Shown: positions 2,342-61,590 of the stretch, in pieces
Numbering within the stretch: the stretch's first letter is position 1
Layout of the letters: every line of letters starts with the position of its first letter
Source of the DNA: a virus
Lineage: Duplodnaviria; Caudoviricetes
Direction: 5' to 3' (one strand)
IMG/VR virus record: IMGVR_UViG_3300037067_016568
Location: 64,001 to 128,000 of that record
DNA: 64,000 nucleotides
Made by a program: the position numbers and the translations under genes
Notes under the pieces: generated by a model
The model's database searches: none
Seen by the model: only the letters and a program-made list of their open reading frames with translations
What the model was told of the DNA's origin: nothing

Positions 2342-2342
2342 C

Positions 2343-3923: not shown

Positions 3924-3931
3924 GAGATCAG

Positions 3932-5065: not shown

Positions 5066-5080
5066 CAAAGGAGGTGTGTA

Positions 5081-6103: not shown

Positions 6104-6105
6104 CA

Positions 6106-8154: not shown

Positions 8155-8155
8155 T

Positions 8156-9451
8156 ATGTCACTTAGAGTAACTAGACAACAAATTGAGGTTCTCATCTCG
8201 CCGGGCCTGCGAGTAACAAGGCAGCAAATTGAAGCCCTCGTATCTATGCCGCCAATTGCGACAACGCGGCAGCAGGTTGAAGTATTAACTGCGCCACCAA
8301 CACAGATTTACCGAAACCCATTAATAATAACAGAAGATGATACTATTCAATCGCTACCATTAAATTACATCTTAAACCATGGCGATCCTCCCCCGTGGGA
8401 AGATAATTCTATAAATTGGCCACAAACCAGATCATCATGGGCCGCACGCGCTTGCATTAATGCAGCATGTTGGTATCAAAGAACTGAAATAATAATTAAC
8501 CCTAATATAACGTCAGACGAAAGAAAGTGGTCTGGGAGCGTTCTGGCACCGAACGGTTGCATCTATGGAATACCAAAAGACGCCACAAGCATATTGAAAG
8601 TCGATCCTTCCGACAACATAGCCATGGTATTTGGAAGCCTTTCTTCTGATCAGTACAAATGGCAAGGCGGCGTATTGGCTCCAAATGGTTGTATTTATGG
8701 TTTTCCACAAGATTCAACATCAATACTGAAGATAGATACATCAACAGATACGGTAACAACATTCGGCAACATAGCTGGGACTGATAAATGCCAGAGTGGA
8801 GTCCTAGCCGCCAATGGCATGATTTATAGCGTCCCATATTCGCAAACAGCCATTATAAAGATCGACCCGTCAACTGATACAGTTACGACATTCGGCGACT
8901 TATCAGGGACCGAGAAATGGATGGGCGGTGTCCTGGCTCCGAATGGTTACATTTATGGGATACCATATGATTCTACAGAAGTTCTGAAAATCGATCCAAC
9001 GACAGATACGGTAACAACATTCGGTAGTCTGTCTGGCGGCGATAAATGGCAGGGTGGAGTCCTAGCACTTAATGGCATGATTTATGGAATTCCTTTTACT
9101 GGCAGATATGTTCTTAAAATAGATCCTACAACTGATACAGCTACAACTCTATCAACAGATCTTACTACAGATGGCGGCAAATGGACCGGAGGAGTACTAG
9201 CACCAAACGGCATGATTTATGGAATACCATTTTTAAGTACATCTGTTTTACAAATAGATCCAACAACCGACAGGGCGACTACGTTTGGCAGCGTTGGATC
9301 TGGTTCAAACAAATGGGTTGGTGGCGTTGTCGCGCCAAACGGCCAAATTTATTGCCTGCCAGCATTTAGCGACAGCATACTAATCATAGGCGCTCAAGCT
9401 GTTGATATCCCAATTGATTTGTTGTTATCAAGGCACTTCAACAAATATTAA
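8156..9451 (+). CDS. beta-propeller repeat protein (type B paralog)
   Basis: N-terminal LRVTRQQIEVL repeats plus seven propeller repeats. Confidence 0.75.
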   Translation: MSLRVTRQQIEVLISPGLRVTRQQIEALVSMPPIATTRQQVEVLTAPPTQIYRNPLIITEDDTIQSLPLNYILNHGDPPPWEDNSINWPQTRSSWAARACINAACWYQRTEIIINPNITSDERKWSGSVLAPNGCIYGIPKDATSILKVDPSDNIAMVFGSLSSDQYKWQGGVLAPNGCIYGFPQDSTSILKIDTSTDTVTTFGNIAGTDKCQSGVLAANGMIYSVPYSQTAIIKIDPSTDTVTTFGDLSGTEKWMGGVLAPNGYIYGIPYDSTEVLKIDPTTDTVTTFGSLSGGDKWQGGVLALNGMIYGIPFTGRYVLKIDPTTDTATTLSTDLTTDGGKWTGGVLAPNGMIYGIPFLSTSVLQIDPTTDRATTFGSVGSGSNKWVGGVVAPNGQIYCLPAFSDSILIIGAQAVDIPIDLLLSRHFNKY

Positions 9452-14312: not shown

Positions 14313-14426
14313 AGGTTACTCCCACAGTCTGCGAAGTGTTACCTTAATATATTTGGCTACTGCCTGGGTGAAATTACTACAAGTATCTTATAGTACATCA
14401 GCACTCAACCACGATGAAATACTATA

Positions 14427-31600: not shown

Positions 31601-32701
31601 CAAATGGCCGGTAGATGGATCGGTAAATGTAGTGGCTACAGCTGTTGTACTTTTCAGAGTCACAGCCTGTGATGCTTGAATTCTTTGCTCTTCAATATAA
31701 CGCCTTGTCTCAGCATTTCGCGATTGAGATTGACAATATTCTAACGCACAACATAGAGCTGCCTTTTGTTCGTCAAAAAGTCCAGCCATTACTGAAAGCC
31801 AAAACTGAACAATATTCTCACAATCACTTTTAATAGCAGCTACTTCGCGATTGAATTCAGTCTCAATCGATTCTAAAATGCCTGAAACATCTAAATAATA
31901 AACTTCCTGTGAATTGCTATAACAAGTATCAGGGAGCCATGTGATAACAGCCTGTGATGCAGTTGTTGGGAGTGCTACTAGCCATGTACTGTTAGACGTA
32001 GATGTCAGTTTAAGTTGTGATGGGCATGCATCTGGATTACCTATGATAGATCGTGTAACTACTAAATAGTTCTCTGTTTCACTTATTTCTTCAGTCCCAA
32101 TAGAGGTAATAGCGCGAGTAACATTTTGATTTACTCTTTCTAACGATGCAGGTTCCGGTTGGATAGTGATACTAAATGGCGCATTCGCGCCGTCATCGCC
32201 AGCGGGACCATTAGGACCGTATGGCAGATAATCTTGTCCTCGCGGACCGGTGTCACCCTTATCTCCTTTAGGACCACGAGGTGAGCGAACCACAAAACGC
32301 TCACTATCGATCATAAATTGAAAGAATGCTGTGGTATCGATTGTAAAGTTAAATGCATAAGTGTTCTGATGAATCTGTCTCGTAATCGTAGAAACATCGC
32401 TTATCTTAGCATTGCTGTCTATTTTGACATATTCATCGCCTTCTACCAAAGCGATAGTACCACTCGAAAACGCATAATCATACCCAGCAACAGTGATAGT
32501 AGTTTGAGGTGGTGGGACAATCAAGCCATTTAATTTTTTTAAATCGCTCGATGCCATCAATCCAGACATCAACGGCGTAGCGAGTGTTATGGTGCCTCCC
32601 TCTTGCTGATGCCAGATGTGCAGAATGGCATCGTAAACATAGGTAAGACCATCTTCTACCGTTACTACATCACCGTTTTTAGGATTCGGAGGGAAAGGCA
32701 T
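28673..32701 (-). CDS. tail-fibre-like virion protein with collagen-like repeats
   Basis: MPFPPNPKNGD..YVYD..W N-terminus, GLMASSDLKKL, GPKGDKGDTGPRG collagen segment, Cys-rich coiled coil, Ig-like segments. Confidence 0.65.
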   Translation of the reverse strand: MPFPPNPKNGDVVTVEDGLTYVYDAILHIWHQQEGGTITLATPLMSGLMASSDLKKLNGLIVPPPQTTITVAGYDYAFSSGTIALVEGDEYVKIDSNAKISDVSTITRQIHQNTYAFNFTIDTTAFFQFMIDSERFVVRSPRGPKGDKGDTGPRGQDYLPYGPNGPAGDDGANAPFSITIQPEPASLERVNQNVTRAITSIGTEEISETENYLVVTRSIIGNPDACPSQLKLTSTSNSTWLVALPTTASQAVITWLPDTCYSNSQEVYYLDVSGILESIETEFNREVAAIKSDCENIVQFWLSVMAGLFDEQKAALCCALEYCQSQSRNAETRRYIEEQRIQASQAVTLKSTTAVATTFTDPSTGHLTTITNESIDSTAQSIVIDGQPRQSGRSIVNTTIMDQSCGEGYGANNIHNLPNNLDPVGGSACIPGIILSSDGKALKYDECPPGFIPRYVARDAVLTSSAAEVPDTEYPADYNTALDIPETGSGSSTVYQGAIYGKITPGVNLYLPPGVSLARKLAVNAFRSNNPVTSSELRVTITGSPLSLCKSVVVSVKSTNGTTLAYGQTNSDGDIYFKNLSSLEQYNITLEKDGCLFAPDGWSLVQPNTLQITQLTSTATTGVTTTPVQQIVKCSSGSNVLVVTVSGDAEAINSTWVSVRYYTTGYPLCSAYAGTSTTNQGEIVFTGIPDGLWIIYAGTDDTSETDPNYYVVDQPCNPVANPVSQQAYELRSCKTVQFAHRTDGGQNLARMTFNVLTYAKPASSWVLESSIPAELVSPGDSRFEALVRQQILADPNASMSLSEALSAFDVNEPVVLKIESDAEFKIYYTKGFGADYRDNLGEITFRDGNFFDKLFNGVYNICIVRQAGDISSFNLEAITKNVRFLQGAGDGWSNAFIQTNRRIVAAQGPLEAWWLQIRVEHPLPLQPPYSASCGSVGPRISKTDKRFCRELPNGTGNILTRDFVISDGSLATWFTSRCEKELVPDAITMTIGSPFAVDNLILCRVAHNAYSGGFNFDAPNKKSVQIIVEQVDPVSVEPGQFTDRVGGSDYRCTILGWNSQDCLGDVSNFGSVIVNANCSKWSIDGLWSMAGTEVKFKAYAVENLLHDDSIELILDVDEGNQGFFKAATGELPKGEYVVDITDCCFRSGDQYTGHIEIEYQSNNGKATKRFPNLGAFTEQDVARSNYRGLTIEIDHQGGEVIAKLVSPVLLDGSGKISVRFTTKDLFVKNDFEFQSFDDSCAISYAQVRMMEGWHLTQTPGIVVDIAGQDYIITRQYIDGMQLCIEKYNRPVFAWPTLDGSHFAGIPESGVVLYKRISQLEQIAKEAMGNPDDVDIILFPVIS

Positions 32702-32708
32702 ATTACTC

Positions 32709-33185
32709 TCACTGTCCAATAAGTGCTGGTGGTATGTGTCTCCAAATTCTTACACGGACGCTCCCGACTGAATCGGCTGGTGGTGAAAATCGCAGTCTAT
32801 GAGGAGAAGTAAATTCCAGATAGAAGCAATTATTCAAATCGGTCATGTCAACACGTTTAAACGCCTCAACGTTTGTTGCTTCGACTTCTATAGGATACCC
32901 TATAGAAGTCCAATTGGTACCAGCGCTGCTTTTCCATTCAACTTGTAATCCACGTTTTCCGCCGACAACAAATACAGCGGGGCTTCCTTTCAGTAACAGA
33001 AACGCACCACTTATATATTTAACTATATAACCGCCCAGCGGGAGCAATAATGAAACTGATCCTTTATCGCATACATCTATTGACTTTATAAGCCCTGTAG
33101 GATTTCCAGAGACTTCTATAATTCCAAAATCATCTGGTAAAGAATTTATATATTCTGGTCCAAATATACTAGCTGCTATTGACAT
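32709..33185 (-). CDS. hypothetical virion-associated protein
   Basis: 158 aa between two fibre genes; GGYIVKYISGAF resembles the GEYVVDITDCCF segment of 28673. Confidence 0.55.
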   Translation of the reverse strand: MSIAASIFGPEYINSLPDDFGIIEVSGNPTGLIKSIDVCDKGSVSLLLPLGGYIVKYISGAFLLLKGSPAVFVVGGKRGLQVEWKSSAGTNWTSIGYPIEVEATNVEAFKRVDMTDLNNCFYLEFTSPHRLRFSPPADSVGSVRVRIWRHIPPALIGQ

Positions 33186-33195
33186 TTAATACTGC

Positions 33196-36100
33196 CTACG
33201 GGCTGCCGCAATCTGAGCATGGAATTGTCGTGTCGACTACCTTAGCACATTCAGTGCTTCTATAGCTACTCCACCAAGCGTCATCACCCACATGGAAAAT
33301 AGTATCATTATCTTTATTTAGAAAATAAACAGTGGCAGTATTTATCGCTTGCAACCACCTACCACTGTAATCTATTTCTACAACCAATGGGTGCCTGTAT
33401 CCATATGTCGTGTACCCTGAGGCCGGAACGGTGCATTCTAATTCCAACACAGCAGCATTAATTTCATCTGACATTACAAATCCAACGTCAGTTTCAATCG
33501 TATCGACAGAATCGGTCAATCTAGGGCCAATCCATCGACCCAATTCTTCATCATAGTATGACAGTGGCGACGACTGATCTACCTCAACACCATGAGTTGT
33601 ATTGTTATGTTCTGATACGGCTCGATTGATCCAATATACCGAGTCTGGCCGCATCGATTCTGTTGTATCTAATAAGACAGCTATTAAATCAGGGCAACTT
33701 GCTCCATTATTTGTGATTTCATTGTAGAATTCTATTATATCAGTGGCTGTTACACGTTTTTGACCAAAGCCACGCCAAGGAAGAACTTTATGAGTAATAG
33801 TTCCTTTACTGTCTTGTGGAAAACTGCCATCTTCTATCGACGTGTCGACGTTTGTCCCCCAAGAAATATCAGGTAAAATATCATGCTCATCTTCTTGATA
33901 ATCGTGAGCTTTATCTATAGTCCAGCCTTTTGTCTTCGAACCGTCGGCGTCTGCATATTGGTCAGGGCCGCGATCCGTTTGCTCATAATAAACAGATTGT
34001 CCTGGATTTGCTAACTGTAAAACACCTATCGTCACCTGCTGTCCAGAACATAGTGAGCTAAGCCATGTATTCCATCTTGACTTGTCATATTTATAATTAT
34101 CGTATCCTTGATTGAATCCACTACCTTCATAACTGACGTATCCATCGTTGCTTGTTGGTGTAGTTGGACAGTTAGATTCATCAGTAATAACGAGTATCAA
34201 CATTTGATACGAAGCTGTCGGAATATACGTAGGCTTTGGCATCCAATAATAAAGCAATTGCTCAGCTATACCAACAGCTCTACCAAGCCAACGCTCAGCC
34301 GCATCAATAGTCGATCTTACATACAAAGTCGGAAATAGAATCGACTGCTTAGCAGGCGATACATACTCCCAACCCCATAAATAAGCATCACTTGCTTTCT
34401 TCGTTGTGTAACCGTCAATTACTGGTGGAACAGCTAATTCGCCAGCTTTGTTTGTTCCTATATCAACAGTATCTGTTGATATGTGTAAATTAGGATAAAC
34501 CTTCTGGATTAAAGAAACACCGGCATCAACAGTATCATTCACATTTGTGGGATTACCTAAGGAACCTGAGGTATCAACAACAACATATAAAATTGTAGGT
34601 GCATAATCACCATTATCTATGATATTATTAAACACTGCCAACATATCATCAGCAGTAAATGACGCGGCGCTCGTTTGAGCTATCGTGATTTTGTTCCTGT
34701 CTGTATCACCGGGCCACGATGCGTTGCTCGGCTTTAAAGCGCCGCCTAACGGCGGATTACCGGCATATCCTTTAGGTTGCAGGATGCCTAATCGAATTTT
34801 ATTGTCGCTGCCTTGTAAAATTGCCAGGTAATCTTTCCACTTTGCTGCATCATATTCCCAAGCTGTCGTATTTGGCGGTATCCCAACTGGTCCACTCACA
34901 CCATCCGGTCCTTTATAACCGCTATAGCTATAAATCGGACTTGCTTCATCTGTTATACACATAATGACAACACGATCATTGCCAGGTATGGTAACGGACG
35001 GACATTGTGAACACATATATCTGCTAGCTGTCTTCGTTGCATCAACTAACCATCGATCATCTTGATTGTGATCTGGTGATGACGAACCAATGGTAGAAAT
35101 AAAACAGATGTCTGGATATAGCTTTTCTAACTCTGCAACAGCATCATCTAACGCTTTTTGCTCTTCTAATGCGTATTCGGCGACTTTGCTCATTGCTTTG
35201 GATTTAAACAAAATATTTATCTGATTAGGCAAAAAATCACTGCCGCAAAGCTTAATCGGCCTAGAATCATCATCATAATCGATATTAGTAAGCATCTTCT
35301 CCACAAAAGTTACAATATTGCTCGACGTAATCTTTGGACTTTGCACAGATAACAGATGATAAAATGTATGATCTCTCATAGAGTCATACGGTAAAGAACA
35401 TTCTGCACACAGCATATCACGCTCATCGCCATAATAGGCAGTATCAGTATTAGGGATTTGAAGCAATCCCAAGGCAACAACCTGGTTTGAAGTCAAACTA
35501 TTGATAAACTTCTCCCATGCTGCCTTATCGTTATTATAATAATTTACTATAGCTAGGTCTTCGCTTGGTATGCCGGTTACATATACTGGATTCGCTTCAT
35601 CAGTAATGATTATCTGCATCATGCGATACGGCAACAAGCATTTAGCTGGATTGGTAGGATCAAATGGTGCAGAAGCAGAATACTGCGTCCGCACTAATGC
35701 AGTATTGTCTGACACAGATGACTCATCATCAGATCCAACAGCCAAAGTCGTGACACCTGTTGCACCAGGAGCAGGTTGTGGCGTCTGACCTGCCTGAACA
35801 ATAGGAACCACAACGTCAATCTTAAGCACTACATCTGTACCAGCATTATGTGTTGTAGCTGTAGTACTATCATGTCCTCTTGTAACGGTCCAGATAGTAG
35901 TGCCAAATCCACCAGTAACTAGCATATGCTCGGTACCGACCATTACAGTATATGATTCATCTGTAGGGAATCCAGCATATGAATCAACGCCTATTTGCGT
36001 ATCAGTTTCAGAAATGTCAGATACTATTTTCGTATTTGCTATTCCAGTTGAGCAATCAGATGGAGCTATACCAAGACAGAATTCTAGAGGGCGCTGAAAT

Positions 36101-37185
36101 TCGCATTGTGCCACTTGTTGTGCTATCGTCGCTAGAGCTTCTCTGGCCGCTGCATCCTTGCTCTCAATATACGACTTCATCTGGGCCATCCATATGTCCT
36201 GAAACGACGCCAGCTTCTCTTTATATGAATCAACAACAACTTTAACCAAATCACTTAGTTTTGTCAATTCAATTGATGAAACCTCTCCAACCTGCAAATC
36301 TGGTGACATCTTTACAAGCAGCACATCAGCTGTATCTGGATCGGACAGTGGGTCTCCGTTTGGATATGCCAACACCCAATCATCCAGCGTGACATAATCT
36401 TTTCCGTCCTCTGGAATAGTTGGATATGAAAGCGATCTCTGTATCGGTTGCGCAGATAATTGGTCCGCTGGTGCCGTATTGGATGGCACATTCATTTTGG
36501 CAGTTGTATATGACATCAGCCCGGCTGTTCCGTCCATGCGTAACGCAACCACTGCTGTGTCGACTATATCTGATGTATCAACAACTTTAATCCCGCTGAA
36601 AGTATGGGCGACTGTTGCATCTAGCCCAGCATCACCTTTCTCACCTTCCGGGCCATCATTAAACCCATCAATGCCAGCGGGCCCTGTAGCTCCTTTTTCA
36701 CCCTTTCTGCCAATAGGCCCAACCACTTCTAGACACAGAGCATCTATAAAATTCTGACTGAGCGAAAATCGCAATCCTGACAAATTAGTACCAGAAGCAT
36801 CATCAGGCAGTGCCTGCCCTAAATATGGTGCTCCGTCTGCATCGATACATTCAATGTTCAGACTATCACTATGTAATTGGACTTGCCCGCTGACTAGACC
36901 AACCTGATTATCAGGAGACCTAATTATTGCACCTTGTTCGGTAACAATTCCAAATGCACCAGCAATAACAGGAATAGAATCTAAGAACCTCTTGCTTTGT
37001 GAACTCATCAACCCTGTCGTATTGACATCGGCCAATGGATAGGTAGTGGCAGTACCTATATTAACCCAAACGTCAAGGTCAGCCGTCCATCGCCATCTTA
37101 CCAGGTTCCCGTCTACCCATATCTGGCCATCAACTGGATTTGTAGGCAATCGATTAGATGTAGAATTCTCGTTTTGTATAGACAT
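33196..37185 (-). CDS. tail-fibre-like protein with collagen repeats and three vWA-like modules
   Basis: LPTNPVDGQIW, GLMSSQSKRFL and GxxG collagen segment paralogous to 28673; ITDE x3 with DTSGS/DTTES MIDAS-like motifs. Confidence 0.65.
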   Translation of the reverse strand: MSIQNENSTSNRLPTNPVDGQIWVDGNLVRWRWTADLDVWVNIGTATTYPLADVNTTGLMSSQSKRFLDSIPVIAGAFGIVTEQGAIIRSPDNQVGLVSGQVQLHSDSLNIECIDADGAPYLGQALPDDASGTNLSGLRFSLSQNFIDALCLEVVGPIGRKGEKGATGPAGIDGFNDGPEGEKGDAGLDATVAHTFSGIKVVDTSDIVDTAVVALRMDGTAGLMSYTTAKMNVPSNTAPADQLSAQPIQRSLSYPTIPEDGKDYVTLDDWVLAYPNGDPLSDPDTADVLLVKMSPDLQVGEVSSIELTKLSDLVKVVVDSYKEKLASFQDIWMAQMKSYIESKDAAAREALATIAQQVAQCEFQRPLEFCLGIAPSDCSTGIANTKIVSDISETDTQIGVDSYAGFPTDESYTVMVGTEHMLVTGGFGTTIWTVTRGHDSTTATTHNAGTDVVLKIDVVVPIVQAGQTPQPAPGATGVTTLAVGSDDESSVSDNTALVRTQYSASAPFDPTNPAKCLLPYRMMQIIITDEANPVYVTGIPSEDLAIVNYYNNDKAAWEKFINSLTSNQVVALGLLQIPNTDTAYYGDERDMLCAECSLPYDSMRDHTFYHLLSVQSPKITSSNIVTFVEKMLTNIDYDDDSRPIKLCGSDFLPNQINILFKSKAMSKVAEYALEEQKALDDAVAELEKLYPDICFISTIGSSSPDHNQDDRWLVDATKTASRYMCSQCPSVTIPGNDRVVIMCITDEASPIYSYSGYKGPDGVSGPVGIPPNTTAWEYDAAKWKDYLAILQGSDNKIRLGILQPKGYAGNPPLGGALKPSNASWPGDTDRNKITIAQTSAASFTADDMLAVFNNIIDNGDYAPTILYVVVDTSGSLGNPTNVNDTVDAGVSLIQKVYPNLHISTDTVDIGTNKAGELAVPPVIDGYTTKKASDAYLWGWEYVSPAKQSILFPTLYVRSTIDAAERWLGRAVGIAEQLLYYWMPKPTYIPTASYQMLILVITDESNCPTTPTSNDGYVSYEGSGFNQGYDNYKYDKSRWNTWLSSLCSGQQVTIGVLQLANPGQSVYYEQTDRGPDQYADADGSKTKGWTIDKAHDYQEDEHDILPDISWGTNVDTSIEDGSFPQDSKGTITHKVLPWRGFGQKRVTATDIIEFYNEITNNGASCPDLIAVLLDTTESMRPDSVYWINRAVSEHNNTTHGVEVDQSSPLSYYDEELGRWIGPRLTDSVDTIETDVGFVMSDEINAAVLELECTVPASGYTTYGYRHPLVVEIDYSGRWLQAINTATVYFLNKDNDTIFHVGDDAWWSSYRSTECAKVVDTTIPCSDCGSP

Positions 37186-37240
37186 AGAATGATCCTGCTT
37201 TTCCCTATATTTCCTCCCAGTATCTACACTACTATTATGG

Positions 37241-37408
37241 CTACGATGTTGGCTTTTTTACGAGTGCCAAGCACAGTAGCCAGATAATAGCAGCAATAAT
37301 ATAGGTGCGGACATCTACGACAAAGAATTCCGCCAACTTGACAGCACCAATATATGCCAAAATCAACAACAAGACAGATGCCAAAATTGTTGATTTTGTG
37401 TGCTGCAT
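37241..37408 (-). CDS. small two-TM membrane protein (55 aa, not in the ORF track)
   Basis: MQHTKSTILASVLLLILAYIGAVKLAEFFVVDVRTYIIAAIIWLLCLALVKKPTS; starts 1 nt after the upstream stop. Confidence 0.6.
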   Translation of the reverse strand: MQHTKSTILASVLLLILAYIGAVKLAEFFVVDVRTYIIAAIIWLLCLALVKKPTS

Positions 37409-37409
37409 A

Positions 37410-37814
37410 CTACTCGCCATCCAATTTATTTAACTGATGGGCAAACGCCATAATGGCTTTGTTCGAACTTCCATGCTCCAAGATATGATGCCCAAGAGCT
37501 ATACAAAAATCAACATCGAGCAATATTGGTATGTAGTCAGCCATTACCAAAAATGCTCCAATTTGGAACGAAAAGGGGGTTTTACCGTTGGCCTTTTCAT
37601 GCCGCTCCACAGTCCGATCGTGAGACGAAGACCTTCTTTCTGGCTCCGGCTCAAAATCGAGCTCTGGTTCTAGCTCATCGGCACCGTATGGGTTTTGGGT
37701 CTGGTCATCTTCAGGCTCATCTGTCCTACGAGGACAAGTTTTTTCGTGAAGAGTCAAGCCAGATTTGCTCTTAACGGGCTTTCCACAAAACCTGCAACAC
37801 AGTTGTTGGTTCAT
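37410..37814 (-). CDS. C2HC zinc-finger protein
   Basis: CRFCGKPVKSKSGLTLHEKTC. Confidence 0.6.
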   Translation of the reverse strand: MNQQLCCRFCGKPVKSKSGLTLHEKTCPRRTDEPEDDQTQNPYGADELEPELDFEPEPERRSSSHDRTVERHEKANGKTPFSFQIGAFLVMADYIPILLDVDFCIALGHHILEHGSSNKAIMAFAHQLNKLDGE

Positions 37815-37888
37815 CGCTAGCTTTCTATAAAAATGGGTGTCACTTATAACTAGAACTCATAAAGAGTCAAGCATGCAAAGATACATTT

Positions 37889-38143
37889 ATGGAATCATTT
37901 TTTGACGAGCTAAAGCTCATAAAAGCCGGGAATGTTTTATACCAGGGGTGGCTTGATTATGCTTTATCATTCACCAAATCAGATATACGAGAAATTATCG
38001 AGAATGGCCTAACATACCAGGCAAACAGTTTGCGTTCTATGATTCGTGAATTGGTCGCCGGGCAGGTCATACCAGAAACACTACATCGCAAGCTAGACAT
38101 AATTTTGGTTGCCACTAGACGCAAAGCTGATCAATTGAGATAA
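37889..38143 (+). CDS. hypothetical protein
   Basis: 84 aa, preceded by the AAAGATACA motif. Confidence 0.5.
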   Translation: MESFFDELKLIKAGNVLYQGWLDYALSFTKSDIREIIENGLTYQANSLRSMIRELVAGQVIPETLHRKLDIILVATRRKADQLR

Positions 38144-46200: not shown

Positions 46201-49198
46201 CATCGTCTTCATCTTCATCTTCTGATACCGGCTGGTACCTGATTGTTATTGATTTGATCGCTTCAAAATAATCATCATCTTCTGCTGTCCCATCATAACC
46301 GCATTTCTTGGCCTCTACCAAGAATTGTTCTATTGTCAAACCATCAAAGTTGATGTTTCTTTCAATGAGATAACCTGCAGCGTTGTCAATCCACCGTGGC
46401 CACAGATCCGGAACTTTTAAATCTTCTTTATAGCCTTCCCACAAAACATCGTCTTCATCGACATAATCATCGAGGAATTTAACATGCTGCTCTTCATACC
46501 ATGCCACTTTTTTAGCATTTGTAATTGCTTGTTCAATAGCGTGGATTGGCCTACTGTAACGCCGCTGTTTTTTCTCGACAGCCTTTGCCCGATCTTCCTC
46601 TGTGATAGCTGCTGCGATATTGTTTTCAAATGTGACAATCGCTTTATATGTCACCCATGGTGGGTTTTTCATATCGATACAAACACCGCTATATCCTGCA
46701 ATCCGGAATTTGAATTCATCACCTTTTTTCTTCCATATTATAGAGATCCTGGCATACTCAGGACTGTGAGTATCACCAGTCATAAACCATTTAGATGCTG
46801 CCCCATGATATAACAAATAATACAAATAAATGCGTTCTTTGCTATCACTAACAACAGCAAGTGGTTGCAACCACTTTCTATATCCTTTCTTATGCCGCCA
46901 ATCAAGGAAAATAGACTTATCGGCATCGGGCTTCTTGGTACGCTCCATCTCAAGCTTGGCAAGAATAAACTCCGCCGCTTGTTTTCGTTCAGCATCGGTT
47001 AGATGCTCTTGCGGTCTAGCACCAATATTCCATTCATTCCACCGATTATGTGCACACACAAGTTGCCAGCTTTGATGCCTAATGTCAACAACAGTCCAAT
47101 CCTTAGACGAAATAAGCCGAACAAAGACACCACAATCAAAATGGATAATGTTCTGGCCATCGGTTGTGGCTAACACAGAACTAAGACTGGCATCAGCATA
47201 TAGACGCCATACCTCTTCCCTGACATAGATGTTTTCATCGTTCTCGAACCGCAACACAGTATAACTGCGATCTGGGCGGTAGAAAATCGCAAGAGTCTTC
47301 TCGTCGCCAAGCTTCTCAGCAGCGTGATTGTGAGCATCAGCCAAATTATCATCATATAAGGTTCGTCGACGACCATATTCAGAAACAATCATGCGCAAAG
47401 CTTTAGCATCATCAGATGTCAATGCTCTATGTTCTCGTACTTTGAATTTCCACCAATGTATCAAAGCATCAATGCTGCGTTCAGCAGATGCAATCGATGT
47501 ATTGTGTGCTTTCGCGATTTCGCCAATTAGTAGCTGCCTGAATGGTGCCTCTTCTTCTAACTCTTTCTGTTTAATCTTTAGTGCCGCTTTCAATAGCGGG
47601 ACCATATGTATGTAGTTGTGCCTGTTTGTGCGAGAATAGAGATAGTAGTTAATGTCAGATATTGTCACATTATCAATATTGATAATAAAATCATCTCTCT
47701 TATAGACAGTATAGCTGACACGAATCCTGCTCCTCTCGCCCCATCCTCTATCATTCTCATAATAGAACTTGAATCCTTCATTCGGTACCTTCTTTTCAAG
47801 AACATGTAGCTGATAACTGTTCGGACGCAAAGCATATTTATTGCCTTGACGTTTGCCGAGTTCTTGATAATGAAAATGATAACTATCAAATTCGCCAGCA
47901 ATCCGACATCCAACTTCAAGCGCACCATTCACACTGTCGAGCCACTTATCAAAACCTGGACGTCCAGTACCCAGCAAGTTCTCAGCATCATATCTCAATA
48001 TGACGTGTTGTTGCCCTTCAATAGCACATACATTAATTGGTTCATCCGGCAAAGGGTGAAAAACCTTAGTGCGATCGACAATACCTTGGATCAATATCAA
48101 TGCTGCATAAAACCGCCGTTTTTTGGACTCTGCTTTGTCCATGGCTTGCATGTATTTAGACGAGCCGGGCGTCAGAGGTTCTCTAATTGTCTCATGTGTC
48201 CTCCAATCCGTGCGAGACTCATAAAAGAAATGCTCAAACTCGTCTTTTCGCGGCAGAAAAACATCTTCAACCCATAGCGTTGTGAAGACACGATATAAGT
48301 TGTCACCGTTACGAATTAGAATGTATAGGCACTTATTCCGCCTATTCAATTCAGAATTGACGAATGGATTGTCGTCATAATGCTTCGGATTGCGCCGTGG
48401 CTTTAACGCGACAATGCCCCTGCGTTCAGGAAGAACTTGTTGCAAATGAGCAGGGTCACATATCCATTTATCGAAGCTCTCTATGTTCTCAAAATCAATG
48501 CCGCCGCACTTGGCATTATCACTAGCAACAGCACTCTCTTCATCCATATAGAGAACTTGTTGCCTGACGACGATTTTTTCATCCTGTGGAGCAGGCTCGC
48601 CTCTCTGAATTCGAATAATCTCTTCATCTTGGCCGAGATAGGCGTTAATAATATAGATCGCCTCTTGTGCCAATTCGATCTGTTTGGTGAGAGCCGCCGA
48701 TTTGGCATGTAATATGAGTTGCTGCTCTTTAATAAGTGATGCTAATGCAGCTTGACGTTTCGCGATCTGATTCTTGGTCACGGCGAATGCGGTTTTGACC
48801 TTTTTCAGATTCTTAGCAGCGACAACAGGATTCGCACGGCTTACGACAGACGCAAATTCCGTCGCCGAAGATTGCTTTACAGGTTGAGTTTCGTCGTTTA
48901 GCAGCTTCGGTGTAGTGGCCGATTCGATGAGATTGTCTTGTCTGTCTCCGATGTTATGGAGATCATTTAAAAGGGCATTTAATTCGCCTTGCCGCTCTTC
49001 GACGCCATCAGGAGCTAGGTCGAAAGAACTCGTAAATACTCCCAATGGCAGCGTCCAAGTCGATTCCCCTTGAATCAACGTCACCTCGTCTCCAACGATA
49101 TCAGACAAATACCATAACGACCCTACCTCCATTTCGCTGAGAGATTCATCATCCGGGTCGTCAATATGCTCAACCAGTCTATAATATCCTTGTTCCAT
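46190..49198 (-). CDS. large hypothetical protein (1002 aa) with N-terminal coiled coil
   Basis: Long uninterrupted ORF; no family recognised. Confidence 0.7.
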   Translation of the reverse strand: MEQGYYRLVEHIDDPDDESLSEMEVGSLWYLSDIVGDEVTLIQGESTWTLPLGVFTSSFDLAPDGVEERQGELNALLNDLHNIGDRQDNLIESATTPKLLNDETQPVKQSSATEFASVVSRANPVVAAKNLKKVKTAFAVTKNQIAKRQAALASLIKEQQLILHAKSAALTKQIELAQEAIYIINAYLGQDEEIIRIQRGEPAPQDEKIVVRQQVLYMDEESAVASDNAKCGGIDFENIESFDKWICDPAHLQQVLPERRGIVALKPRRNPKHYDDNPFVNSELNRRNKCLYILIRNGDNLYRVFTTLWVEDVFLPRKDEFEHFFYESRTDWRTHETIREPLTPGSSKYMQAMDKAESKKRRFYAALILIQGIVDRTKVFHPLPDEPINVCAIEGQQHVILRYDAENLLGTGRPGFDKWLDSVNGALEVGCRIAGEFDSYHFHYQELGKRQGNKYALRPNSYQLHVLEKKVPNEGFKFYYENDRGWGERSRIRVSYTVYKRDDFIINIDNVTISDINYYLYSRTNRHNYIHMVPLLKAALKIKQKELEEEAPFRQLLIGEIAKAHNTSIASAERSIDALIHWWKFKVREHRALTSDDAKALRMIVSEYGRRRTLYDDNLADAHNHAAEKLGDEKTLAIFYRPDRSYTVLRFENDENIYVREEVWRLYADASLSSVLATTDGQNIIHFDCGVFVRLISSKDWTVVDIRHQSWQLVCAHNRWNEWNIGARPQEHLTDAERKQAAEFILAKLEMERTKKPDADKSIFLDWRHKKGYRKWLQPLAVVSDSKERIYLYYLLYHGAASKWFMTGDTHSPEYARISIIWKKKGDEFKFRIAGYSGVCIDMKNPPWVTYKAIVTFENNIAAAITEEDRAKAVEKKQRRYSRPIHAIEQAITNAKKVAWYEEQHVKFLDDYVDEDDVLWEGYKEDLKVPDLWPRWIDNAAGYLIERNINFDGLTIEQFLVEAKKCGYDGTAEDDDYFEAIKSITIRYQPVSEDEDEDDDDW

Positions 49199-53692: not shown

Positions 53693-54484
53693 CTACCAAT
53701 CTCCACCCGCTCCACCCCCGCCGAAATCGCCCCCACCGCCGCCGTAGCTGCTGGTTCCGCTATCACTACTACCGCTGCCCAAACTGCCGAGAATTGATCC
53801 GATAACTGCACCATCACCATCCACTCCACCAGATTTCAACAACACGACAATAATAATGAGAATAACAATGATGATAATTACGATTCCAAGCCAAGTGGTC
53901 CAGAAGCTCGTTTCAGCAGGTGGTTCTGGAATCGCTGCTACTCCTCCACCGCCTATCTGTACGTTGATGGCATTGACTGCTCCTACGATACCAGCGAAAT
54001 AATCACCAGCCTTGAATTTCGGTTTCACAACATGTGCTAAGATACGACGGCATGATGCGTCAGTTAAATCTCCCTCCAGCCCACGACCAACTGTAATCCA
54101 AGTCTTGTGTTCTTCTACAGCGATGACAAACAAAACGCCGTTGTCCTTGTCCTTCTGTCCGAGCTTCCAGCTTATAGCTGTTTCAAGTGCGAATTTCCCA
54201 ATTTCTTTACCGTCCAGTTGTGGTACAATTAGAACCACAATTTGATTGCCGGTTTTTTCCTGGATTGCTAACAAATTCTGACTGACGGTTTCAATCTGAG
54301 CATCAGTCAGTAATTTAGCGTCGTCATTGACCGGGCCACGAAGCTGTGGTGCTGTTTCATTAGCATGTGCGGCCCGATATGCTTTCCGAATAGCCGGTAT
54401 CAAAATCGCCGTCAAAATACCTATAATAAATATGACAACTAACAACTCTATAAGTGTAAAACCACCCCTATCGCGTATCTTCAT
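53693..54484 (-). CDS. TPM (YgcG-like) domain protein with prepilin-type N-terminal cleavage/methylation motif
   Basis: RGGFTLIELLVVIFIIGIL; VNDDAKLL..WKLGQKDKDNGVL..VGRGLEGDLTD; TM helix; GGGGDFGGGGAGGDW tail. Confidence 0.88.
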   Translation of the reverse strand: MKIRDRGGFTLIELLVVIFIIGILTAILIPAIRKAYRAAHANETAPQLRGPVNDDAKLLTDAQIETVSQNLLAIQEKTGNQIVVLIVPQLDGKEIGKFALETAISWKLGQKDKDNGVLFVIAVEEHKTWITVGRGLEGDLTDASCRRILAHVVKPKFKAGDYFAGIVGAVNAINVQIGGGGVAAIPEPPAETSFWTTWLGIVIIIIVILIIIVVLLKSGGVDGDGAVIGSILGSLGSGSSDSGTSSYGGGGGDFGGGGAGGDW

Positions 54485-54556
54485 ATCTTTTATCCTTATG
54501 ATTCAGTGCGCTCGTTAGCAGGCTAAAAGCGCTCTCGACATATAGATATGTTCATC

Positions 54557-55159
54557 CTAGAATTCAACCTTCGGCGTTGTTTTATCGGTTTCTGAGACCT
54601 CTAAACGTTCAGCTTTCTTAAAGTTATGAAAGCTGGCGACCAATTGACTAAAAAAGCCGCCGCAAAGAGTATTGTAATCCTTCACTGCCTTGTTATATCG
54701 TTGTCTAGCCTCATTGATACGGTTTTCCGTCCCTTCAAGCTGCGATTGCAAGTCCTTAAAATTTTCATTTGCCTTTAGATCAGGATATTTTTCTTGAACT
54801 AGCAAAAGCCGCGATATAGCCGACGAAAGCTCGCCCTGTGCTTCGGCGAATTTTCTCATTTGCTCCGGGTCTGTCGCAGCGGCATTGATATTCACTTGAC
54901 CTACCTTGGCTCTCGCCTCGGTCACAGCAGTGAATGTTCCTTTTTCATGCTCTGCATATCCTTTGACCACAGCAACGAGATTAGGAATAAGATCGGCTCG
55001 TCTCTTGACAGTAGCACCGACATTATCAGCCTTTTCGTAGACCGTATTGATACCGTTGTTCAAGTCATTGTATGTGCTTCTCCATGAGAGTACCACAATG
55101 AGAGCGACCACAACAAACACAGCAGAAAGGCCAAGTAACACATTCGAGCAACTTTTCAT
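54557..55159 (-). CDS. lemA: LemA family protein
   Basis: N-terminal TM, RRADLIPNLV..VKGYAEHE, YPDLKANENF..LEGTENRI..R.RYN. Confidence 0.95.
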   Translation of the reverse strand: MKSCSNVLLGLSAVFVVVALIVVLSWRSTYNDLNNGINTVYEKADNVGATVKRRADLIPNLVAVVKGYAEHEKGTFTAVTEARAKVGQVNINAAATDPEQMRKFAEAQGELSSAISRLLLVQEKYPDLKANENFKDLQSQLEGTENRINEARQRYNKAVKDYNTLCGGFFSQLVASFHNFKKAERLEVSETDKTTPKVEF

Positions 55160-58204: not shown

Positions 58205-59617
58205 CTATTGGAGGCTGACCTGCTCTAACGATGCTATAAATCTCAAAAAGTGTTCAGACCATCCGGCAATCTCAGCCGTCCAAACGCCCTTGTAATTGAT
58301 ACCAAGTGCATGCGAGGACACATCAATCACGTAATTCCTTTTGCCGAATGGTTTTGGTTGCCGACGCTCCGGCCAATCACAATCTTGTGAATCGCTGAAA
58401 ATGAGCAACCTGTCTGGCGTCTCCTCTTTTTTACTAATATGTTCACAAACTTGTCTGGTGAAAATACCACCACCGCCCAAATGGTGCTTAAGGTTCAATA
58501 TCTCGTCCGCCAGAGCAAAACCTCGAAGTGGTTTAACTTTTTGAGTATGATGCTCACGCGAATAGTCATTGCCTGCCGTAGCATAAACGGAGATATGATC
58601 GCAACATTCTGCAGCTAAGACAGCCATGGCAGCGGCTGCATCCATTCTCGTGAATTCTGACTTATCGGAAAGTTGATTTCCCATTGAGCCGGAAACATCG
58701 ATCACTAAAGTCGTGAAGCCAGGGAAACGCGGCCACGTCTTGGTGCATCGATACATCAAATCCTCGATTTCTCGTGACCAGTCGGGAGCATACTTTCGAG
58801 CCTGCAAAAAATTTATCGGCAGTAGCATGTCTACCTTACAATTTTTGAAAGCTTTAGCGATTGCATCACGAGACACACTTGCTTTCTGCATATTCCGCAG
58901 ATTCCGCAGGAAAGCAAGTGCTGGAAGCCTCGACGACTCAATCAGTCGCTCCCACACCTTCCGCTTTTCATCTTCGCTTTTAGCTGCAGATAACCCAACT
59001 TCCCACGTATCTGGGACGGCAAGCTCATTGGCGATTAGCCGCTTATATAATCCTTCTCGATCTTTCGTCGGCTTCGCATGTGAGAGGAATAAAACGTCTC
59101 GTAGTTTTACATCTTTATCAAGTCGATTATATTTGGCAAGCTGGTATTCATCAAACTTGCCAAATGCCTGCGCGAGACCCTTTTTTACTTGTGCGGACAA
59201 AGTTTTCAAAACGTCGCCGCCTACCGTTTCGCCATTATCAGACCAATACAGGGCTAAAAACTCGGTCATCTCGTCTGGTCTGTGACAGATCTTAGCAAGC
59301 GTATCGGCGACACCCGGCATCCCATGACGAGCCATTTCACGCACAAGCAATAGCGGGACGTGTCGCAGCTTCTGCTTAAAACGAGCCTCTATAGCCATTT
59401 CGCCAACACATGGAACCTTGGGCACCAGCGCCTTGATTTGCTCAACAATCAGTTCGCCATCACAATATGCATTCTTTTCCCATAATAGGCATGACATAAC
59501 AAGACGGCGCAGGGTAGCTTCGTCACTCTGCTTGGCGGCTCTTGGACCATGGCCACCAGCCAGTCTCTCATCAACATAAACATGCGATTTCTTCGTCTTT
59601 TTATTGATGGTTGCCAT
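58205..59617 (-). CDS. rsr: Ro60-related TROVE domain protein with vWA domain
   Basis: TROVE features (LRHVPLLL, RPDEMTEFLA, FDEYQLAKY, LRDVLFLSHAKP, PDTWE, LAFLRNLRN), vWA MIDAS IDVSGSM..FSDSQ, GWSE; GGAGG SD; adjacent Y RNAs. Confidence 0.95.
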   Translation of the reverse strand: MATINKKTKKSHVYVDERLAGGHGPRAAKQSDEATLRRLVMSCLLWEKNAYCDGELIVEQIKALVPKVPCVGEMAIEARFKQKLRHVPLLLVREMARHGMPGVADTLAKICHRPDEMTEFLALYWSDNGETVGGDVLKTLSAQVKKGLAQAFGKFDEYQLAKYNRLDKDVKLRDVLFLSHAKPTKDREGLYKRLIANELAVPDTWEVGLSAAKSEDEKRKVWERLIESSRLPALAFLRNLRNMQKASVSRDAIAKAFKNCKVDMLLPINFLQARKYAPDWSREIEDLMYRCTKTWPRFPGFTTLVIDVSGSMGNQLSDKSEFTRMDAAAAMAVLAAECCDHISVYATAGNDYSREHHTQKVKPLRGFALADEILNLKHHLGGGGIFTRQVCEHISKKEETPDRLLIFSDSQDCDWPERRQPKPFGKRNYVIDVSSHALGINYKGVWTAEIAGWSEHFLRFIASLEQVSLQ

Positions 59618-59640
59618 CTACGTTATCCTCCGTTACGCTA

Positions 59641-60054
59641 CTGTAGTCCATTCAGAAGTATTCCCTGTAGTCCTGTAGTTAGCTGGGAACGAACGATATT
59701 CTCCATTGCGACCGGCTCAGCATCGTGTTGTCGCACTCCTGTAGTCCTGTAATCCTGGGAACGAACGCTATTCTCCATTTTGGAAACGGCCTAACTCGTC
59801 TATCGTTCCCTGTAGTCCTGTAGTTACCTGGGAACGAACGCTATTCTCCATTAGGGAAACACCTCAGTTGAACCACCTCACTCCTGTAGTCCTGTAATCC
59901 TGGGAACGAACGCTATTCTCATTTTCCTGCGCCAATGGCCTGCTAGACTTCTCCTGTAGTTACCTGGGAACGAACGCTATTCTCCATTCAGACGACCTTG
60001 ATGACCGCCAAGCTTGACCCTGTAGTTACCTGGGAACGAACGCTATTCTCCATT
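59641..60054 (-). CRISPR. CRISPR-like repeat-spacer array without cas genes (6 repeats plus 1 collapsed, 5 spacers)
   Basis: Plus-strand consensus CCTGTAGTTACCTGGGAACGAACGCTATTCTCCATT (36 bp) at 59672, 59746, 59817, 59891, 59953 and 60019. The first four are preceded by an extra CCTGTAGT. Unique spacers are 30, 29, 30, 29 and 30 nt. A collapsed repeat CTGTAGT-CCATT lies at 59641. Strand is inferred from the operon. Confidence 0.7.
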
Positions 60055-60092
60055 TCGCTGTCAGGTGGTTCCCATCACCCTATGTATCAAAA

Positions 60093-60226
60093 ATGCTGCG
60101 GGAACAAGCGAAACAGGCTAGTTTAGCGCTCTGCCAATTGAGCTACACGGACAAGCCGTGATTGGATTCGAACCAACAACCGCTCGATTTCAAGTCGAAG
60201 TAACCCATCTCTACACCACGCAGCAT
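60093..60226 (-). ncRNA. yrlA: YrlA-type Y RNA with circularly permuted tRNA-like domain
   Basis: Terminal stem ATGCTGCG/CGCAGCAT; T-arm GTTGG-TTCGAAT-CCAAT precedes the closed acceptor-like stem CACGG/CCGTG and D-arm GCTC-AATTGGCA-GAGC; next to rsr. Confidence 0.85.
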
Positions 60227-60231
60227 ATTGA

Positions 60232-60299
60232 GAGCCGGGAACAAACTTACACGGCTTTTTCTTCATGGACCGAAGTAACCGTATAATCCACCACGGCTC
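60232..60299 (-). ncRNA. minimal Y RNA lacking the tRNA-like domain
   Basis: Terminal stem GAGCCG/CGGCTC with the same TGGNGNA, GGTTACTTCG and GTTTGTTCCC motifs as the YrlA copies; no T or D arms. Confidence 0.7.
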
Positions 60300-60302
60300 A
60301 AG

Positions 60303-60375
60303 TAGTGGGGGTCGGATTCGAACCGACGACCTGCAGGTTATGAGCCTGCCGAGCTACCAACTGCTCCACCCCACA
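60303..60375 (-). tRNA. tRNA-Met(CAT), initiator-like
   Basis: Cloverleaf TGTGGGGTGGAGCAGTTGGTAGCTCGGCAGGCT-CAT-AACCTGCAGGTCGTCGGTTCGAATCCGACCCCCACTA; U1:U72 mismatch and A11:U24 pair; CCA not encoded. Confidence 0.9.
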
Positions 60376-60378
60376 TCA

Positions 60379-60588
60379 TCAATTGTAAAGCTCCGGATAC
60401 AAACCACGCAAAAAATCTGTGAATTGCACTAACCCACCATACTGATCCAGCAATCCAGATTTGCACGCTCGGTCTTGTATATCCTCTAAAACGAATCTGA
60501 TCTGTGCGTCTGTAACTGGCCGACCATCTGGAAATAATGCTTCCAATCTTTCCAGACGTTGTTCAACTGTTAAATCCGCTGTCTTCAT
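60379..60588 (-). CDS. small hypothetical protein within the Y RNA cluster
   Basis: ~69-aa ORF (LTVEQRLERLEA) filling the gap between a Y RNA and the tRNA. Confidence 0.55.
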   Translation of the reverse strand: MKTADLTVEQRLERLEALFPDGRPVTDAQIRFVLEDIQDRACKSGLLDQYGGLVQFTDFLRGLYPELYN

Positions 60589-60604
60589 CGTTTTTACTTT
60601 CAAA

Positions 60605-60741
60605 TGCTGCGGGAACAGGCGAAACAGGTCAGTTTTAGCGCTCTACCAGCTGAGCTACGTCAGCCGTAGGCTGACGACTGGACTCGAACCAGCGACCTCT
60701 CGATTAGGAATCGAAGTAACCCATCTCTACACCACGCAGCA
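60605..60741 (-). ncRNA. yrlA: YrlA-type Y RNA
   Basis: TGCTGCG/CGCAGCA stem; T-arm GCTGG-TTCGAGT-CCAGT; acceptor-like CGTCAGCC/GGCTGACG; D-arm TAGCTCAGCTGGTAGAGC. Confidence 0.85.
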
Positions 60742-60751
60742 ATATCAAAAA

Positions 60752-60862
60752 TGCCGCAGGAATAAGCGAAGCAGGCTAGTGCTCCCGTGAGCGACGCCCC
60801 CATAAGGGAGGGGGCGATTGGAGTCGAACCAACGAAGTAACCCACTCCTTCGCCATGCGGCA
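60752..60862 (-). ncRNA. yrlA: YrlA-type Y RNA, compact variant
   Basis: TGCCGCA/TGCGGCA stem; GGCGAAGG Ro-site-like motif; T-arm GTTGG-TTCGACT-CCAAT; CGCCCCC/GGGGGCG stem; short D-arm GCTC-ACGG-GAGC. Confidence 0.8.
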
Positions 60863-60878
60863 AGTTCAATTGTCAAAA

Positions 60879-61016
60879 TGCTGCGGGAATAAGCGAAATA
60901 GGCAACGTTAGGTGCTCTGCCAACTGAGCTACACCAGCCGTAGGCTTAGTGACGGGACTCGAACCCGCGACCACCCGCTCCATAGGCGAAGTAACCCATC
61001 TCTGCGCCACGCAGCA
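60879..61016 (-). ncRNA. yrlA: YrlA-type Y RNA
   Basis: TGCTGCG/CGCAGCA stem; T-arm GCGGG-TTCGAGT-CCCGT; D-arm TAGCTCAGTTGGCAGAGC. Confidence 0.85.
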
Positions 61017-61017
61017 G

Positions 61018-61079
61018 TACTATTTAAATACATGCGGCCAATCTTGTCAAGTACTATCATATGACGCCACATGTGTCAA
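61018..61079 (-). promoter_or_regulatory. putative tandem sigma70-type promoters for the Y RNA/array/rsr unit
   Basis: Two perfect minus-strand TTGACA hexamers (61079-61074, 61050-61045). The proximal one starts ~34 nt from the 5' end of the first Y RNA. The -10 boxes are imperfect. Confidence 0.5.
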
Positions 61080-61107
61080 AAGTATCCAACCTTTTCCGGC
61101 AATAATT

Positions 61108-61590
61108 TTATTTCTCCCAATCGAGTCCTATCCGGTCGTCTATAGATATATCTGGGTCATTTAAAGTCCTGACCCAATTATCGATGTAAAGATTGTGGTC
61201 ATCACATTCTTCACATTCGTTCATACGATATCTCTTATGCTTAAAAGGCATACCTCTCTTAGCATCGATCGCAGCTTGCCAACATTTCCAGAATATTTTC
61301 CAGTCCTCTGGTAGCTCGCTCTCACACCAAGACTGAAAATTATCCCAACAATATTCTTCTTTATGAGTTCTAGTCCTTTTAATCTTGGTACGTGGGTGTG
61401 CCTTGTAGGTTTCAGAATAATATAGATAGCGAGTAACGTATATCGACGATTTTAAACCAAGCTTATGGATTCTGCGAGCTACAGCTATACGTATTCTCAA
61501 TGGGAGTTTCTTAAATCGTCTCACCCATTGAGCATTTATATTGCCTCTTTTATTTAAATAAGTCGCAACTATTTCGTCTACAAACTGCAT
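61108..61590 (-). CDS. hypothetical protein
   Basis: 160 aa, GAGG SD. Confidence 0.55.
   Translation of the reverse strand: MQFVDEIVATYLNKRGNINAQWVRRFKKLPLRIRIAVARRIHKLGLKSSIYVTRYLYYSETYKAHPRTKIKRTRTHKEEYCWDNFQSWCESELPEDWKIFWKCWQAAIDAKRGMPFKHKRYRMNECEECDDHNLYIDNWVRTLNDPDISIDDRIGLDWEK

Follow-up and report, generated by a model that had tools for sequence, protein, structure and literature searches.

Nuclease-dead Cas12f proteins accompanied by CRISPR arrays have been described as a cluster (Hoffmann et al., Nature 2026; PMC13472631) and, in phages, under the name 'dCas14' (Al-Shayeb et al., 2020; PMC7162821), and repression has been proposed for them on the grounds that spacers match promoters or host genes (PMC13472631, PMC7162821). 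Such dCas12f with arrays are mentioned by Al-Shayeb (2020), Altae-Tran (2023), George and Hug (2025) and Hoffmann (2026); the phage-borne form has been glimpsed since 2020, with its targets and guide source not established. In the portions drawn on here, George and Hug (2025; PMC12607003) describe landfill phage type V clades with effectors of 300–474 aa, a weak or absent RuvC and orphan arrays, along with a complete 364-kb jumbo phage carrying arrays; tracrRNA, repeat origin and targets of those clades are not reported in these portions.

The active type V-F1 nuclease AsCas12f1 (PDB 7wju, 8dzj, 8j12) is a further point of reference, and the tracrRNA of Cas12f1 forms a pseudoknot of a short and a long repeat/anti-repeat duplex (PMC11246509). 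Cas12m (type V-M) and TldR silence mobile elements or host genes (PMC12669027, PMC13472631). With regard to the origin of spacers, the relevant precedent is Flavobacterium columnare, in which an oppositely transcribed type VI-B array is loaded in trans by type II-C Cas1-Cas2 (PMC8092290).

Here we analyze an array in a 64,000-nt stretch of phage DNA (the window), positions 64,001–128,000 of the IMG/VR record IMGVR_UViG_3300037067_016568. The whole record, hereafter G000, spans 184,768 bp, is about half complete and occurs in landfill and groundwater runs; samples containing the phage include JGI 3300037067, 3300029288 and 3300014204, ENA ERZ27247350 and ERZ27247363, and SRR18595300. The phage system belongs with the array-bearing dCas12f and is neither an active V-F1 nuclease nor a II-C array nor a Ro60 guide system, and it is likely that the five window spacers are crRNA guides of this phage-encoded, nuclease-dead type V-F-like system, with the window array as its satellite copy. 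Like the Hoffmann cluster and the phage dCas14, it combines a Cas12f-like protein truncated before RuvC-III with nearby CRISPR arrays and lacks adaptation genes. Unlike them, insofar as the identity of the clades can be compared by description, it belongs to a jumbo phage of a probable Planctomycetota host and has two effector paralogues, a multi-copy compact tracrRNA, a satellite array 86 kb off and an inverted II-C-like repeat. The clades of George and Hug, likewise set beside the phage system by description and as far as these portions of their study go, share its landfill habitat, and their 364-kb phage is the size of G002, a complete sibling phage of 364 kb. What is new here is that an orphan array is tied to a distant effector and that the inverted II-C likeness is measured.

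The window array and its insertion site

The window array (59664–60054) comprises six 36-nt repeats and five spacers of 28–30 nt (Table 1). The repeats are conserved, the spacers are unique and of even length, and the array has leader polarity, with intact repeats on the leader side and decayed repeats at the far end; Rfam contains no family for it. All five spacers of the original prediction are present, and the 36+30 geometry it gave is real when measured; S4 is a genuine spacer as well, although one extra T had been included in it. Overlooked at that stage were the minus-strand reading of the array and the 8-nt duplication of the handle end in the four leader-distal repeats (R1–R4), two of which have also changed further.

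Table 1. Coordinates of the window array, its neighbors and the distant effector locus (window positions unless G000 is given)
Feature	Position	Strand	Remarks
YrlA-like Y RNA cluster and tRNA-Met	60090..61017	minus	upstream of array; array-free in relatives
Leader	60055..60085	minus	short hairpin motif, recurring at the same end of two effector-side arrays (G000 32256-32280, 33807-33830)
Repeat R6, nearest leader	60019..60054	minus	13-nt handle intact at minus-strand 3' end
Spacer S5, first guide from leader	59989..60018	minus	handle intact; target search negative
Repeat R5	59953..59988	minus	intact
Spacer S4	59925..59952	minus	handle intact; sole metagenome match 18 nt, chance
Repeat R4	59883..59924	minus	mutated, with 8-nt duplication of handle end
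Spacer S3	59853..59882	minus	behind damaged handle
Repeat R3	59809..59852	minus	8-nt duplication
Spacer S2	59780..59808	minus	duplicated handle before spacer; no IMG/VR match
Repeat R2	59738..59779	minus	mutated, with 8-nt duplication
Spacer S1	59708..59737	minus	same sequence in groundwater run X1; partial matches in three unrelated genes, chance
Repeat R1, farthest from leader	59664..59707	minus	degenerate, with 8-nt duplication
Collapsed repeat and repeat-leader junction remnant	59628..59663	minus	overlaps ribosome-binding site of Ro60 gene
Ro60/TROVE gene, 470 aa	58205..59617	minus	neighbor of array
Sister arrays, same repeat	G000 31641-32255, 33569-33806, 37144-37552, 37736-37915		flank the two effector ORFs
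Effector gene, 453 aa	G000 35735-37096	minus	Cas12f-like
Effector gene, 380 aa	G000 34458-35600	minus	Cas12f-like
Two tracrRNA-like genes	G000 ~37570-37648, ~35620-35698		~80 nt; pair and co-vary with repeat end read on minus strand

Read along the minus strand, the YrlA-like RNAs with tRNA-Met come first, followed by the leader, the array and the Ro60/TROVE gene. The array is inserted between the Y RNA cluster and Ro60, 86–92 kb from the effectors. At the Ro60 locus of six of six relatives (G002 and L129–L133; Ro60 identity 70–75%, Y RNAs in five) the array is absent, which argues that it is a satellite insertion rather than a Ro60 module. The same repeat forms four further arrays 86–92 kb away in G000. 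Transcription of the window array would start from its leader end and follow the minus strand, probably inside a Y RNA–Ro60 transcript; the Ro60 gene is probably the transcription context of the array and is not its effector. In 59500–61200 no promoter-like site was called. The −10-like hexamer TATTCT described near the repeat ends does exist, but its place is not that of the −10 box in II-C repeats, and the sister arrays carry variants of it.

The window array persists in an independent groundwater run, and a strain of 99.8% identity, found in another sample, has the same spacers in the arrays compared; Logan contigs break at the repeats and give no view of spacer turnover. The siblings G000, G001, G002 and L006 share their architecture and have no spacer in common, which refutes structural RNA modules, as the original prediction had linked these to invariant spacers across relatives.

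Effectors, tracrRNA and guide register

The 453-aa effector matches PADLOC Cas12u3/Cas12f as well as AsCas12f1, the latter both by sequence and, in a predicted model of low confidence, by fold. Neither the RuvC-I nor the RuvC-II position is occupied by an acidic residue, and the protein stops before the zinc finger and RuvC-III. The 157 homologues aligned agree in this respect: they have other residues in place of the RuvC-I Asp and the RuvC-II Glu, and none contains the zinc finger with RuvC-III. The 380-aa paralogue yields no family match of its own; its close relative P0012 matches the family profile at 2.8e-108. The features of a dCas12f are all observed, i.e., C-terminal truncation that removes part of RuvC, a preserved Cas12f fold and arrays nearby. 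An active V-F1 nuclease was considered and rejected, given that the RuvC D-E-D triad and the zinc finger are missing, and the effector is predicted from its sequence to be unable to cut. Because G000 is only about half complete, an active nuclease, or a cas1 gene, could be located in the missing part. The effector family includes 181 representatives at E below 1e-30, with members in Thermoguttaceae, Planctomycetaceae and Lentisphaerales assemblies. At 380–450 aa plus an 80-nt tracrRNA, the system is a compact natural CRISPRi candidate in a large uncharacterized family.

The search for an anti-repeat or tracrRNA, called for by the original prediction, yielded an element of the phage itself, on the minus strand, that co-varies with the repeat. 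This element of ~80 nt is present in two copies in G000 and in 2–4 copies in the siblings. On the minus strand it folds into a hairpin, the loop of which complements the final 6 nt of the repeat; a 3' tail complements the 7 nt before these and is followed by a T run. The tail co-varies with the repeat in G001, G002, L006 and L126. Complementarity and co-variation thus show that two short duplexes join the tracrRNA to the final 13 nt of every repeat, and hence each guide would consist of this handle followed by the spacer. The predicted architecture is the short plus long duplex pseudoknot of Cas12f1. The phage system resembles AsCas12f1 in the short/long duplex tracrRNA, the spacer 3' of the handle and the best sequence and fold match, and differs in the ~80-nt tracrRNA and in the loss of all three catalytic positions together with the zinc finger. 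RNA-guided DNA binding without cleavage, predicted for the phage system, would be common to Cas12m and TldR, which represent other lineages: Cas12m is not known to need a tracrRNA, and TldR employs a single omega-RNA-like guide without arrays.

In distant homologues of the effector, co-directional 36-nt arrays share the same repeat 3' end, and for this reason the minus strand is taken as the reading strand. By this reading of the sequence, the window array is predicted to serve the distant dead Cas12f in trans, with S5 as the first guide. The tail duplex reaches −7.6 kcal/mol with the intact handle, compared to −2.3 in the spacer-adjacent register of R4–R1. Since the handles of R6 and R5 are intact, whereas R4–R1 are duplicated or mutated, S5 and S4 are probably the active guides, and S3–S1 are probably weakened, misregistered or retired.

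The state of these repeats also bears on a different reading, under which the array is a decaying, mostly non-functional copy of the dead-Cas12f system in the Y RNA–Ro60 operon and its spacers no longer matter. Mutation or a register-shifting 8-nt duplication in four of the six repeats, the absence of the array from the six Ro60 relatives and the negative target searches are all consistent with decay, but R5, R6 and the leader are intact, the array has been kept in the independent groundwater run, and the five spacers are all full length and unique, which implies that they were gained at the site or copied whole. We therefore consider decay improbable and retain the interpretation of the array as a satellite source of guides.

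In a Thermoguttaceae prophage-like locus (L126, G479:C410), a tracrRNA homologue directly precedes an array, both downstream of an integrase. The 13-nt handle also occurs by itself, as exact copies oriented opposite to the arrays, at G000:C1:3419-3431, 14318-14330 and 48796-48808.

Likeness to type II-C repeats and the source of spacers

The resemblance of the repeat to type II-C arrays, recognized in the original prediction, holds when measured on the plus strand: the window repeat agrees with the repeats of Thermoguttaceae genomes carrying type II cas1 in 18–21 of 36 positions, with no offset, against 13 for shuffles. For Planctomycetota II-C repeats overall, the inverted match covers 19–22 of 36 positions at a shared 66-nt period (p ~0.002), and for those found independently through cas1 it covers 19–21 (p 0.0005–0.01); G929 and G843, which were found by a pattern derived from the phage repeat, are excluded as independent evidence. 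The match extends beyond the handle that pairs with the tracrRNA (13 of 23 positions, p 0.001; most conserved across 79 phage repeats). The repeats of G001, G002, L006 and L056 likewise match II-C repeats; the match is absent in the 72-nt-period arrays of the same effector family and in the 66-nt-period families L051 and L055 (the latter compared in part). Type II cas1 is present in 43 of 151 Thermoguttaceae genomes, where the repeats are 36 nt with a period of 65–66, and a II-C-like format, with a 36-nt repeat akin to II-C and spacers of 29–30 nt, is found in the phage. A cas9-cas1-cas2 locus, as expected of a II-C array, was not detected by the search for cas1 in the incomplete G000 record, and neither G001 nor the complete G002 yielded a Cas1.

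The original prediction kept as its main alternative a mini-array that borrows the Cas9 of the host. Such an array would be read on the plus strand and loaded on host type II-C Cas9 to cut rival phages. The II-C likeness of the repeat, the 36+30 geometry, the leader at the II-C end and the frequency of type II cas1 among Thermoguttaceae would all suit such a function. However, the G026 tracrRNA, which may not be that of the true host, forms a duplex of −64.6 kcal/mol with its own repeat and one of −18.1 with the phage repeat (−24.0 and −7.0, respectively, for the first 16 nt); 95% of the 79 phage repeats begin with C, where the II-C repeats have G; the II-C −10 box is degraded; and the phage has a cognate, co-varying tracrRNA on the minus strand along with its own effector. 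Direct use by Cas9 thus appears quite unlikely; borrowed acquisition of spacers, or an origin of the array from a II-C array, accounts better for the resemblance to II-C.

Given that the repeat looks like an inverted II-C repeat and that no cas1 is seen in the phage clade, it seems fairly probable that host type II-C Cas1-Cas2 write new spacers into the dCas12f arrays in trans. The Flavobacterium columnare VI-B array (PMC8092290) is similar in lacking adaptation genes, in its 36-nt repeats and in being transcribed opposite to the II-C array; there, the similarity to II-C is at the leader-distal end of the repeat, whereas in the phage it is also found mid-repeat, and the client effector is a phage-borne DNA-binding type V protein instead of VI-B, with in-trans acquisition being the presumed route. 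As in that system, opposite transcription would flip the PAM side to upstream of the guide. By this analogy, the PAM end of a new spacer would face the leader, the side on which a Cas12f guide, read from the opposite strand, has its 5' seed. Host II-C adaptation is accordingly a testable source of the guides, for which a reverse-complement PAM is predicted to lie upstream of the guide. There is no likeness between the phage leader and the host II-C leader beyond two bases; because the leaders differ in this way and the spacers of the near-identical strain are unchanged, the phage arrays may instead derive from a II-C array that was captured and is no longer loaded today, the likeness being a mere trace of origin.

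A more far-reaching scenario, which we put forward tentatively and consider rather doubtful, is that the phage has host II-C Cas1-Cas2 load host-derived spacers into inverted mimic arrays that are read by the dead Cas12f, producing an adaptive, multiplexed library for silencing host genes. Self-targeting guides would be tolerated in this case because nothing is cut; host targets might be, for example, defense genes, and satellite arrays in other operons would time guide expression.

In a Planctomycetota assembly (L119, G843:C13:8000-22519), a TnpB/Cas12-like gene of 567 aa, in which RuvC and the zinc finger look intact, adjoins an array of 18 repeats whose repeat likewise resembles an inverted II-C repeat (23/36 to the window repeat); there is no cas1 near this gene in the stretch examined. 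The loci L048, L052, L054 and L060 encode the same effector family and have spacers of 34–39 nt and a different repeat 5' end; their arrays may be loaded by another host adaptation module.

Spacer composition, targets and the phage neighborhood

The spacers had been described as richer in GC than the phage, and indeed the five window spacers have a GC content of 0.55 against 0.44 for the genome (p ~0.005); for all 21 full-length G000 spacers, the mean is 0.52 (p 0.0001). Most spacers contain stop-free, protein-like reading frames, which is weak evidence, and together with the GC content this fits capture from the coding DNA of a GC-richer genome. The proposed hairpins fared worse: folding is no better than that of shuffles (mean z of 21 spacers +0.24; S1 and S2 +0.8 on the plus strand), and −2.0 is reached by S5 on the plus strand only, one of ten tests across five spacers and both strands. 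The complementary ends of S1 and S2 are present, but are expected in 3% and 10% of shuffles, and the folding is at chance level.

As predicted, no spacer matches anything in the window, nor in the 185-kb record, and neither a protospacer nor a PAM was found for any of the five window spacers or 20 sister spacers. The recommended comparison to IMG/VR, plasmids and Planctomycetota genomes gave no protospacer in ~970 genome searches (overlapping samples), JGI metagenomes or IMG/VR; blastn against INPHARED and PLSDB returned chance matches only, and the sibling phages G001, G002, G006, G007 and G1054 contain no spacer match. The window array has no target in 401 Pirellulales, 121 genomes of the G929 family, 23 and 30 around G843 and 401 phylum-wide, in overlapping samples with the best few candidates per genome scored. 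The sister arrays have none among 201 Thermoguttaceae, and the true host genome is probably outside the collections searched. The large-collection scans covered S2, S4 and S5 and used exact patterns that allow no mismatch and exclude G at −2 or A at −3, so that true targets can be missed; in these scans, the exact 22-mer of S5 has no match in JGI metagenomes or GTDB, the 20-mers of S2 and S5 have none in IMG/VR, and the 18-mer of S4 has a single metagenome match that does not extend. Conversely, none of 123 host II-C spacers matches G000. Rejected as chance were partial matches of S1 in three different genes, a 25/30 match of a sister spacer in proB, and a 19/20 match in a heparinase-like gene, about one such match being expected by estimate. 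The five window spacers are ordinary variable guides.

The dead Cas12f would bind DNA and block transcription of its target in a GC-richer genome. The Planctomycetota host has a slightly better than even chance of being the target genome, and another mobile element is a less likely candidate, at roughly one chance in three. In one family member (L055, array 6284-7292), several spacers resemble promoter or ribosome-binding-site plus start-codon DNA, and two are duplicated.

Alternatively, the guides could serve the dCas12f with an output other than repression, such that recruitment of a partner (a sigma factor, an integrase or the zinc-ribbon/coiled-coil neighbors) activates or remodels the target. 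The characterized Bacteroidota dCas12f activates transcription with a sigma factor and a fused guide (PMC13472631), whereas the tracrRNA of the phage system is separate; and many family members have a small zinc-ribbon ORF and a 180-aa gene 3' of the arrays. Nevertheless, no sigma factor or transposase is recognized beside the effector genes, and the stop-free frames in most spacers resemble, weakly, random capture from coding DNA. We find this very unlikely; a dCas12f-sigmaE activator in particular was rejected, as the neighbors include no recognized sigma factor and the tracrRNA and arrays are separate. In G000, the zinc-ribbon ORF and the 180-aa coiled-coil gene are at 33304-33612 and 32895-33440 (minus), and the same arrangement is seen in L049, L052, L056, L057 and L060; the ORF could be a split-off TnpB/Cas12f zinc finger, or a partner.

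Least probable of all is a new Ro60-associated guide-RNA or Y RNA-mimic system, or a set of structural RNA modules: the array does lie between the YrlA-like RNAs and the Ro60 start on the same strand, but G002 and L129–L133 encode Ro60 without it, the same repeat adjoins dCas12f elsewhere, and the spacers are unstructured and variable. Membership of the array in the Ro60–Y RNA module was accordingly rejected, the array not being conserved with Ro60 and YrlA in relatives. In this phage, Ro60 is accompanied by at least four YrlA-like Y RNAs and tRNA-Met, as conserved in sibling phages; one YrlA within the cluster is miscalled as tRNA-Ser by ARAGORN. Downstream of a Ro60 relative, a gene resembling the major vault protein (MVP shoulder domain) is encoded at L131:5265-6665.

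Elsewhere in the window, a LemA gene and a TPM-domain gene with a prepilin-type N-terminal methylation motif are located at 53693-55159 (minus). Motifs of this style are common in Planctomycetota, and these genes support the assignment of the phage to a Planctomycetota host. Several ORFs at 878-9451 consist of 43–44-aa repeats (period 129–132 nt) and probably encode beta-propeller proteins.
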